A stretch of 1,716 nt of DNA from sequence record AJ512679.1, one strand, 5' to 3'. Numbering within the stretch: the stretch's first letter is position 1; each line of letters starts with the position of its first letter. Below, piece by piece: positions 31 through 1,299 of this stretch. The notes below the pieces were generated by a model. That model saw nothing but the letters and a program-made list of their open reading frames with translations. It searched no databases and was not told where the DNA came from. Made by a program: the position numbers and the translations under genes. The DNA is from Enterobacteria phage P2-EC45.

Positions 31-173
31 GTTTTATGAGCTTACATATCTATAGCACAAAGTAAAACCTAATCTGACAGTTCGCTCTGTGCTAGGAGCG
101 GACGTAACACATATCGCATTGGGTTGAAGAATGGTTACCACGTTGTGAAAACCACAGTAAAGATTACATGATA

Positions 174-197
174 TTGTCAACAATTTCTTGTTATAGT
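174..197 (+). promoter_or_regulatory. Candidate sigma70 promoter for the cargo ORF: -35-like TTGTCA (174-179) and extended -10 TGtTATAGT (189-197)
   Basis: TATAGT matches TATAAT at 5 of 6 positions and is preceded by TGn. The spacing to TTGTCA is only 12 bp, so the -35 assignment is doubtful. The location is about 60 nt upstream of the ORF1 start. Motif inspection only. Confidence 0.3.
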
Positions 198-246
198 ACA
201 TGCTCACAAACGTAGGTCTAAAAATTAAAACTCAAGCAATGCTATT

Positions 247-250
247 AGGA
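247..250 (+). promoter_or_regulatory. Shine-Dalgarno (AGGA) for the ORF starting at 259
   Basis: AGGA lies 8 nt upstream of ATG 259, and an in-frame TAG (256-258) sits immediately before the ATG, so 259 is the first possible start. Confidence 0.55.
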
Positions 251-258
251 ATAGATAG

Positions 259-771
259 ATGCTAAGCAAAAAAGAAAAAACAGACAAGACAGAAACTAAT
301 TCGGATAAAAAAATAGGTGTCAAAGATAAAGTAAACTGGCTTTTGTGTGGAACTATTCTGATCATGATTGCGTCATTCTGTCTTTATTTATATAAATTCC
401 ATTCACCTTTATCTAACAATCATACAAAGTGGGGAGAGTTTGGCTCATATTTTGGTGGTGTCACCGGCCCATTAGTAAGTGTAATGGCATTTATCGGACT
501 GCTCAAATCAATTAGTTTGACAAAAAAACAATTTGAAATACAAAGTCAAGAGAGTACTTTCTTTAATCTACTTACCTTTCATACTTCTAAAGTTACAAAA
601 ATATATTCTGAGACATATGGGGAGACTGATGCCTTTAAATATCTCTGTGCAAAATATAATGAAGTATATGAGTCTAGATGCATTGCCATAGCATTGGATG
701 GTATTGCAAGAAATCAACAAAACTTGCCAGAATATACGTACTATAATTTCATAAGGTATTTTTTGCCTTAG
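259..771 (+). CDS. Membrane-anchored N-terminal half of a candidate abortive-infection-like defense protein (170 aa as written; probably residues 1-169 of a ~344-aa product)
   Basis: ATG with a good SD. The N-terminus is Lys-rich (positive-inside). There are two hydrophobic segments, about residues 27-45 (WLLCGTILIMIASFCLYLY) and 61-85 (FGSYFGGVTGPLVSVMAFIGLL), predicting an N-in/C-in helical hairpin. The ORF is AT-rich and sits in a prophage cargo position. It ends at TAG 769-771, within or just after a T6G slippery tract. Confidence 0.6.
   Translation: MLSKKEKTDKTETNSDKKIGVKDKVNWLLCGTILIMIASFCLYLYKFHSPLSNNHTKWGEFGSYFGGVTGPLVSVMAFIGLLKSISLTKKQFEIQSQESTFFNLLTFHTSKVTKIYSETYGETDAFKYLCAKYNEVYESRCIAIALDGIARNQQNLPEYTYYNFIRYFLP
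759..765 (+). other. In-phase X_XXY_YYZ slippery heptamer T_TTT_TTG: candidate -1 frameshift site, or site of a 1-nt homopolymer indel
   Basis: ORF1 codons are taT (757-759), TTT (760-762) and TTG (763-765). The ORF2 reading frame is open from 747 and is the -1 frame relative to ORF1. A -1 slip here, or restoring a seventh T, gives one continuous 344-codon ORF ending at 1292. Confidence 0.45.
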
Positions 772-779
772 ATGATAAC

Positions 780-1292
780 GTGACTGTCAAAGAGATAAAA
801 TCACGGTATTCACAATATCTGGAAGAATTTGATAATAAGCAGTCAATTCTCAACGAAATAAACTTAAAGAGAAGGAATATTAAAGATCATGGTAAATTCA
901 TATTGATTGAAATAGGCCGTGATCTGGTAAGGGATATGAGTGCTGAAGAGAGAGTCAAGGTTTTAAGAAATACGTTTGATGGGTTTTATGACGAATTAGG
1001 GCATGTGTCAGGCTCATATATTAGAAATATTTACTATATACTTTCTCATGCGAATGAGTCTATTAATGGTGATAAATATGCAAAAATATTTAGAGCTCAG
1101 TTATCTCGTTATGAATTGGTCATAATTTTTCTAAATATGTTAAGTAGTTACTGCAAGCCGGACTTTGTTTACCTCATCAAGAAATTTGATATATTAAATG
1201 GACTATATATTAATGATCTATGTTACAATCCAACTAGCGAAATGTATAAAGATGATCTTAAAGATATTTACCTACATTCAGATGAAGTGTAA
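780..1292 (+). CDS. C-terminal soluble half of the same candidate defense protein (drawn as a separate 170-aa ORF; its frame is open from 747)
   Basis: The start is GTG with no recognisable SD within 20 nt. It begins 8 nt after the ORF1 stop, in the -1 frame. It has no hydrophobic segments, shares the AT-rich composition of ORF1, and ends in three consecutive stops, TAA TAA TAG (1290-1298). Confidence 0.55.
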   Translation: MTVKEIKSRYSQYLEEFDNKQSILNEINLKRRNIKDHGKFILIEIGRDLVRDMSAEERVKVLRNTFDGFYDELGHVSGSYIRNIYYILSHANESINGDKYAKIFRAQLSRYELVIIFLNMLSSYCKPDFVYLIKKFDILNGLYINDLCYNPTSEMYKDDLKDIYLHSDEV

Positions 1293-1299
1293 TAATAGG

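Follow-up and report, generated by a model that had tools for sequence, protein, structure and literature searches.

We analyzed a 1,716-nucleotide (nt) stretch of DNA from Enterobacteria phage P2-EC45 (sequence record AJ512679.1), hereafter called the window, and found that it is the Z/fun hotspot slot of a P2-like prophage, lying between the tail genes G and FI with conserved flanks on both sides. The slot holds an AT-rich cassette with one gene at positions 259-1292, which is very probably a single gene of the AbiC/AbiP (PF16872) family. In its intact form, the gene encodes a 344-amino-acid (aa) predicted inner-membrane protein; in the window, one thymine is missing from a homopolymer and the gene is split into two open reading frames (ORFs). 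The explanation that we favour, with moderate confidence, joins three elements: a PF16872 gene, a P2 hotspot cassette that carries it, and an action resembling abortive infection. The family, the intact protein and the P2-EC45 locus (CAD54899.1) are already public; the locus is therefore no unannotated novelty. Coordinates below are those of the window, and features lie on the plus strand unless a strand is stated.

The PF16872 gene and its predicted protein

The 344-aa product matched the Pfam family PF16872 (putAbiC) with a score of 46.1 bits, the gathering cut-off being 22 (E 7.3e-12); residues 252-320 aligned to profile positions 7-79 of 80. The intact allele, WP_072658907.1 (344 aa), bears the RefSeq name "putative phage abortive infection protein". 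A preliminary description of this DNA had likened the product to a putAbiC-like family; the Pfam score and the RefSeq name show that this was right. The same description credited the soluble domain with no nameable motif, which does not hold, as the domain contains the PF16872 core. Additionally, PHROG 8999, a family with no assigned function, matched nearly the full length of the protein (E 7e-23). Among 5.8 billion proteins searched, 29 homologs were found (E 1e-226 to 1e-10), all carrying PF16872, nearly all 330-370 aa long and none split. A profile search gave 106, and when a profile was run exhaustively against 1.84 billion cluster representatives, 8,612 clusters at 50% identity were found at E <= 1e-3. 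With 29 homologs and 8,612 clusters found, the two ORFs are not a product of chance. NCBIfam yielded nothing meaningful for the window protein, and sub-threshold matches of its transmembrane (TM) segments to PHROG 'spanin' (E 0.34), DUF4271 and MurJ were disregarded.

The intact product is a predicted inner-membrane protein with an all-helical cytoplasmic C-terminal domain of ~260 aa. Eight lysines lie within residues 1-26. They are followed by TM helix 1 (residues 27-45; window 337-393), where the Kyte-Doolittle maximum is 2.03, and by a short conserved periplasmic loop with TM helix 2 (residues 46-83; window 394-507), which carries the motif F47-H-x-x-L-S52-x5-W58-G-x-F61-G62-S63-Y-F-G-G. 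The second Kyte-Doolittle peak covers residues 64-82. An AlphaFold2 model, for which the input was a 26-sequence family alignment, is all helical, with a predicted local distance difference test score (pLDDT) of 82.7 and a predicted template modelling score (pTM) of 0.69. The model places one helix at residues 21-47, a very long one at 55-118 that extends TM helix 2 into a stalk, and then ten more. Both the membrane anchoring and the Lys-rich N-terminus with two closely spaced TM helices, as proposed earlier, are thus borne out by the lysine count, the hydropathy peaks and the modelled helices. Across the family, the mean number of Lys and Arg residues is 4.2 before TM helix 1, 1.0 in the loop and 3.5 after TM helix 2; by the positive-inside rule, both termini are therefore predicted to be cytoplasmic and only residues ~46-60 periplasmic.

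Invariant residues fall into two clusters among the 26 family members. The first lies at the boundary of the loop and TM helix 2 and comprises W58, F61 and G62, together with S63, G70 and A77. The second comprises G252, Y254, R256, N257, Y260, Y274, F278, A280, Q281, S283, E286, N293 and N314, with the core consensus G-x-Y-x-R-N...F-R-A-Q-L-S-x-x-E. These residues are spread over three consecutive helices, and it is here, in the PF16872 core (residues 252-320; window 1011-1217), that the model is most confident (pLDDT 94-96). No solved or viral structure matched the predicted fold.

The tie to the lactococcal proteins that gave the family its names passes through relatives. The PADLOC AbiP model (PDLC02351) matched 11 of the 26 family members over the PF16872 region (best E 4e-8), and the AbiC model (PDLC02343) weakly matched two relatives, P0005 (E 2e-3) and P0007 (E 5e-4), which are 60-62% identical to the E. 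coli protein. Because the PADLOC matches occur only in relatives, the E. coli protein is linked to AbiC and AbiP via Pfam and transitive profile matches, not directly. No lactococcal sequence was recovered when the E. coli protein, P0013, a Bacillus homolog and P0007 were used as tblastn queries against plasmids.

Lactococcus lactis AbiC (Prf), encoded on plasmid pTN20, is the namesake of PF16872 and, like the window gene, is AT-rich, works as a single gene and resides on a mobile element. In both proteins, an all-helical extramembrane domain without an assignable function comes after two N-terminal TM helices (PMC13064643). However, the window protein falls below the PADLOC AbiC model, its host is Gram-negative and its hairpin loop is predicted to face the periplasm, its carrier is a prophage tail-gene hotspot instead of a plasmid, and the window copy is frameshifted. 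AbiP of L. lactis has the same conserved core, as indicated by the family members that match its model, and is likewise membrane-anchored and active on its own. It differs in having one TM helix where the window protein has two, and the E. coli clade has no direct match to the AbiP model.

The family should be kept apart from the Abi_C domain (PF14355) of the AbiJ and SadR HEPN RNases, which has only its name and the 'abortive infection' label in common with the window protein and differs in fold. A Pfam search of the window protein gave no PF14355 match at E <= 1. A HEPN reading of R256-N257...H264 was rejected, as the histidine occurs only in enterobacterial sequences and no R-x(4-6)-H is conserved. 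'AbiC' or 'Abi_C' has been used for pfam14355 in Staphylococcus aureus, Vibrio integrons and Tn7 cargo (PMC8649781, PMC13590631, bioRxiv 10.1101/2024.07.02.601686), and this usage makes mis-annotation and mis-citation easy.

The split reading frame and the thymine tract

As deposited, the gene is written in two frames. ORF1 (259-771; frame 1, 170 aa) encodes the N-terminal half, of which residues 1-168 are native and are followed by an out-of-frame Leu-Pro-stop. The C-terminal half continues in the -1 frame (765-1292) and is listed as ORF2 (780-1292; frame 3, 170 aa) with a GTG start at 780, although the frame is open from 747. The shift occurs at a run of six thymines (759-764), where intact alleles have seven. 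The whole window was found by megablast in 2 of 5,426 complete E. coli genomes, those of strains A5 and SW07099, with a match length of 1,717 bases compared to 1,716 in the window. In a base-by-base alignment over all 1716 bases, the T6 in place of T7 was the sole difference. Addition of one T to the run produces a 1,035-bp coding sequence whose 344-aa product is identical to the A5 and SW07099 protein. The two ORFs had previously been joined as one 344-aa gene with the right coordinates, and this joining is upheld, since the single T restores WP_072658907.1.

The ORF1 product is identical to GenBank CAD54899.1 of phage P2-EC45, for which the depositors annotated only the 170-aa ORF1 under the label 'putative lysogenic conversion protein'. 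More than 80 contigs carry intact 344-aa sequences that fall into the same 90% cluster; the T6 product is confined to the GenBank/UniRef record. A T8 run was seen once, on a short Logan contig (ERR13910449) whose DNA is otherwise identical (L003 790-797; the T7 lies at L001 20759-20765). The presence of T6, T7 and T8 at one site could reflect repeated sequencing error or real slippage. The GTG of ORF2 is not preceded by a Shine-Dalgarno sequence; therefore, the window copy is unlikely to yield the C-terminal half, in which the entire PF16872 core lies.

The split is thus either a real 1-nt deletion, which makes the copy a pseudogene, or a homopolymer miscall in a Sanger record of a polymerase chain reaction (PCR) product; unless the frameshift is such an error, the T6 copy is probably inactive. 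That the T6 is a miscall or PCR slip in this early-2000s record, and that the prophage in the host strain has an intact T7, is a serious possibility, although we place it short of an even chance. The rest of the window is 100% identical to two complete T7 genomes, the T6 product is confined to the single record, and the lone T8 on a short contig resembles the same type of error. However, Sanger reads normally resolve runs of 6-7 T, the depositors annotated ORF1 alone and so saw the stop, and genuine loss of one nt from a T7 run is frequent where an AT-rich gene imposes a cost on its carrier.

The hotspot, the cassette and the relatives

The ends of the window are the last ten codons of P2 gene G on the 5' side and the first ten codons of FI on the 3' side. 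The 3' end of gene G (tail fibre assembly protein; 1-30, stop codon 28-30, translation NPEWPEMPQ) overlaps the coding sequence annotated as 'tail fiber assembly protein' in A5 and SW07099, and the start of FI (tail sheath; 1687-1716, MSDYHHGVQV) is positioned as in these genomes. P2-type flanks occupy window 1-~105 and 1559-1716, and a GC profile gave ~31% GC for the DNA in between. The left flank (31-105) belongs to a region (window 1-95/105) that is ~81% identical to P2 and P2-EC67, and the sibling record AJ512685, titled "Bacteriophage P2-EC67 proviral Z-region", labels the stretch matching window 31-105 as a left inverted repeat. The right flank (1559-1686) is 97-98% identical to P2-EC67 and P2 and reaches the region upstream of FI; a terminator scan found within it a terminator-like hairpin, CGGGCGAATTGCCCG, followed by a T-run (1566-1580). 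In E. coli A5, a complete P2-like prophage surrounds the same stretch. The hotspot location suggested in the preliminary description is confirmed by the G-FI position, the P2 flanks and the A5 prophage.

Z/fun is one of the two classic variable sites of P2-like phages (bioRxiv 10.1101/2024.10.15.618418), and the hotspot validated by Rousset et al. is the other, old/tin (PMC9122126). The old/tin site of the A5 prophage (L001 2091-5378, between the replication endonuclease and the portal gene) contains genes for a PP2C phosphatase and two Ser/Thr kinases, which places candidate defence cargo at both hotspots of one prophage. P2 Z/fun itself and other G-FI cargo, such as ORF1 of the P2-EC67 Z-region, occupy the same slot between the same flanks and are likewise AT-rich, single-gene cargo with their own promoters, but the encoded proteins are unrelated to the window protein. 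There is additionally a right inverted repeat in P2 and P2-EC67 (L031, L032), which matches the reverse orientation of window 71-110. It is annotated in P2-EC67 and was not found in the window when 1400-1560 was compared; the window cassette ends instead within the relic of a foreign gene.

The AT-rich foreign cassette (~80-1556; ~31% GC) consists of a promoter, the AbiC-family gene and downstream non-coding DNA, and it recurs elsewhere as one unit. Its DNA is 89% identical to a segment of the Raoultella ornithinolytica chromosome (L010 5822-7301) and to one in a metagenomic defence island (L008 9821-11303), and a Morganella locus (L004) shows 87% DNA identity over window 70-1295. Judged from these comparisons, the ~1.5-kb cassette appears to have been acquired horizontally together with its own promoter. 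At its right end, the minus strand (1460-1556) retains, in decayed form, the last ~32 codons of a HEPN_Toprim_N (PF18871) gene; in this relic, AIIATCSKVVG-stop-IRIVEIKNYY aligns with AIIETCSKVAGEIRIAEIKNHY...EERI-stop of L008 and L010. The Raoultella and metagenome loci have the HEPN_Toprim_N gene as convergent neighbour, and the P2 copy no longer does. The relic thus indicates that the cassette was cut out of a defence-type island with a breakpoint within the neighbouring gene.

The left edge of the cassette is marked by a palindrome, GTTCGCTC-N8-GAGCGGAC (arms 80-87 and 96-103), which is kept in every cassette copy and has a related version at the same place in P2. Its consensus at the cassette edge reads GTYCGCTC-N8-GAGCGGAC (L008 ~9822-9845, L010 ~5822-5845, L004 ~662-685). 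As no T-run follows it, the palindrome does not qualify as a canonical terminator; it may serve as a recombination site. A consensus scan gave a candidate promoter at 168-197, with a -35-like ATGATA (168-173) and an extended -10 element, TGT-TATAGT (189-197); the -10 reads TATAAT in the other three cassette copies, and the surrounding bases are nearly invariant. A Shine-Dalgarno sequence, AGGAA (247-251), lies 7 nt before the start codon and is invariant in all four copies. The start codon itself is likewise conserved. Right after the stop codon, a weak hairpin, ACUGAGU-UUUU-UCAGU (1308-1325; -10.8 kcal/mol, z = -1.48, not significant), is conserved in L008 and is possibly the terminator of the gene.

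The contexts of six relatives were compared. P0002 lies in an island with AbiTii, HEPN_Toprim_N, two radical-SAM genes with HxsD, a kinase and integrases, and P0003 (Morganella) lies with a resolvase, umuDC-like genes and AbiGi. P0007 (Yersinia) is part of an element with an integrase, AlpA and a primase. A TIR protein and an integrase adjoin P0005, and FRG, VWA and PP2C genes are found further downstream. P0018 (Bacteroidaceae) occupies a prophage moron slot directly upstream of the terminase genes. These five contexts are mobile elements or defence-gene clusters. The sixth, that of P0086 (Barnesiella), is formed by housekeeping genes, including ilvD, an Omp85-family gene (PF01103), a lactate/malate dehydrogenase-family gene (PF00056) and similar genes. 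No partner gene is conserved among the contexts examined, and the neighbours differ in each; the single-gene status proposed for the locus is confirmed. All relatives encode one uninterrupted ORF.

The proposed anti-phage function and the membrane hairpin

We regard an anti-phage role as reasonably likely. The specific mechanism is more tentative and is drawn by analogy with the lactococcal proteins. AbiC leaves phage DNA replication unaffected and lowers the production of the major capsid protein (PMC13064643). AbiP, which offers the only biochemical lead in the family, is membrane-anchored, requires its TM segment, binds RNA in preference to single-stranded DNA without sequence specificity, and keeps early phage transcripts from being shut off as they normally are (PMC13064643). 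In our proposed mechanism, expression of the protein from the prophage would be constitutive. When another phage infects, the invariant polar core (R256, N257, Q281, S283, E286 and N293) of the cytoplasmic domain would make contact with a nucleic acid or protein derived from that phage. The switch to late phage gene expression, or its yield, would then be blocked; this step is modelled on the effects of AbiC and AbiP described above. The sequence-constrained membrane hairpin would be needed either to position the protein or to serve as a membrane-damaging output.

Several points weigh against this interpretation. The window copy is frameshifted, so the full protein cannot come from the sequence as written. 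We infer, for the window protein, both the anti-phage activity and the role of a membrane-acting effector. PADLOC gave no match to the window protein at E <= 1, the AbiC and AbiP models included. We found no published phage test of a Gram-negative PF16872 member in the literature searched, and a lactococcal AbiC-like protein with 38% identity to AbiC conferred no protection (PMC11381338). Searches under the names putAbiC and PF16872 found no papers. The Barnesiella member (L034-L036 8001-9011) has a fixed chromosomal position with no obvious mobile element, which is atypical for a defence gene.

The last of these points bears on whether the gene is a defence gene at all. The protein might be a membrane protein with another cellular role, its 'abortive infection' label being a result of Pfam name propagation. 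The most abundant relative is indeed P0086 (1,965 index blocks), which sits among housekeeping genes, PADLOC is silent, and experimental support is confined to Lactococcus. However, five of the six contexts are mobile elements or defence clusters, the window gene lies in AT-rich foreign DNA within a recognised prophage hotspot and in only 2 of 5,426 genomes, and relatives match the PADLOC AbiP and AbiC models. We therefore consider a non-defence role quite unlikely.

A defence role could also be exerted at the envelope. The P2 Z/fun gene, which occupies the same slot, blocks T5. The window protein might similarly be a superinfection-exclusion or lysogenic-conversion membrane protein that, for example, blocks phage DNA entry, rather than an agent of post-entry abortive infection. 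Consistent with such a role, it is prophage-encoded and predicted to lie in the inner membrane, its most conserved N-terminal element is the predicted periplasmic loop with TM helix 2, and the depositors named it a 'putative lysogenic conversion protein'. However, topology prediction places ~75% of the protein in the cytoplasm, the invariant core included. Moreover, lactococcal AbiC spares phage DNA replication, so that the DNA enters, and AbiP acts on intracellular transcripts (PMC13064643). Exclusion at the envelope thus appears very unlikely.

The least credible alternative is that the split itself is functional, through a phase-variation tract, -1 frameshifting or transcriptional slippage, which would yield a truncated, hairpin-only protein and some full-length product: an in-phase slippery heptamer, T_TTT_TTG (759-765), does suit a -1 shift into the downstream frame of the T6 allele, T6, T7 and T8 occur in otherwise identical DNA, and the T7 is kept in relatives that are 83-88% identical, but the RNA downstream of the heptamer folds no better than shuffled sequence (z = -1.15), every relative has one uninterrupted ORF, the T7 merely encodes Tyr-Phe-Phe in AT-rich codons (TAT TTT TTT, with CAT TTT TTC in the Yersinia relative), 6-7 T are short for efficient slippage, and of the further A6-A7 runs in the gene, the other A7 runs do not vary. 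Programmed -1 frameshifting was accordingly rejected for lack of a downstream structure and of any interrupted relative.

Returning to the PF16872 protein as a candidate abortive-infection effector, we note that its hairpin is, by sequence, more constrained than a plain anchor needs. The same TM1-loop-TM2 hairpin, with F47, S52, W58, F61, G62, S63 and L82 invariant, is present in ~230-aa proteins without the PF16872 core (L039:3974-4660, L040:3887-4606, L041:3992-4681; alignment A3). On an E. coli plasmid, such a protein is encoded between a type I restriction-modification system (hsdS) and Dsr1. On Providencia plasmids, the gene lies 57 nt downstream of an AbiJ-like Abi_C/HEPN gene, one such pair of products being WP_023159969 and its upstream partner WP_234430098, and on a Leptospira plasmid, it lies 54 nt downstream of a 296-aa gene of no assigned function. 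The ~230-aa proteins had no Pfam or PADLOC match. Together with their neighbours, they may constitute undescribed two-gene systems. We speculate that the hairpin, with its F-H-x-G-L-S...W-G-x-F-G-S-Y-x-G-G loop, is not an anchor and instead serves as a portable membrane effector or sensor module of otherwise unrelated defence systems, although we consider this idea unlikely. If it were true, each AbiC-family protein would combine sensor and pore in one self-contained suicide protein, and new two-gene systems would be defined by the ~230-aa proteins.

The first description of AbiC dates from 1992, and according to a 2026 review, the function of AbiC and AbiP still cannot be predicted from their structures. 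The window copy by itself adds little, because RefSeq already annotates the protein and this instance of it is either broken or mis-sequenced. The PF16872 family is nevertheless large, and its enterobacterial branch escapes PADLOC. The intact allele, present in an E. coli P2-like prophage as a 1.5-kb native-promoter cassette, would be a tractable model for the family, and the less-studied one of the two classic P2 hotspots would gain a named cargo type.

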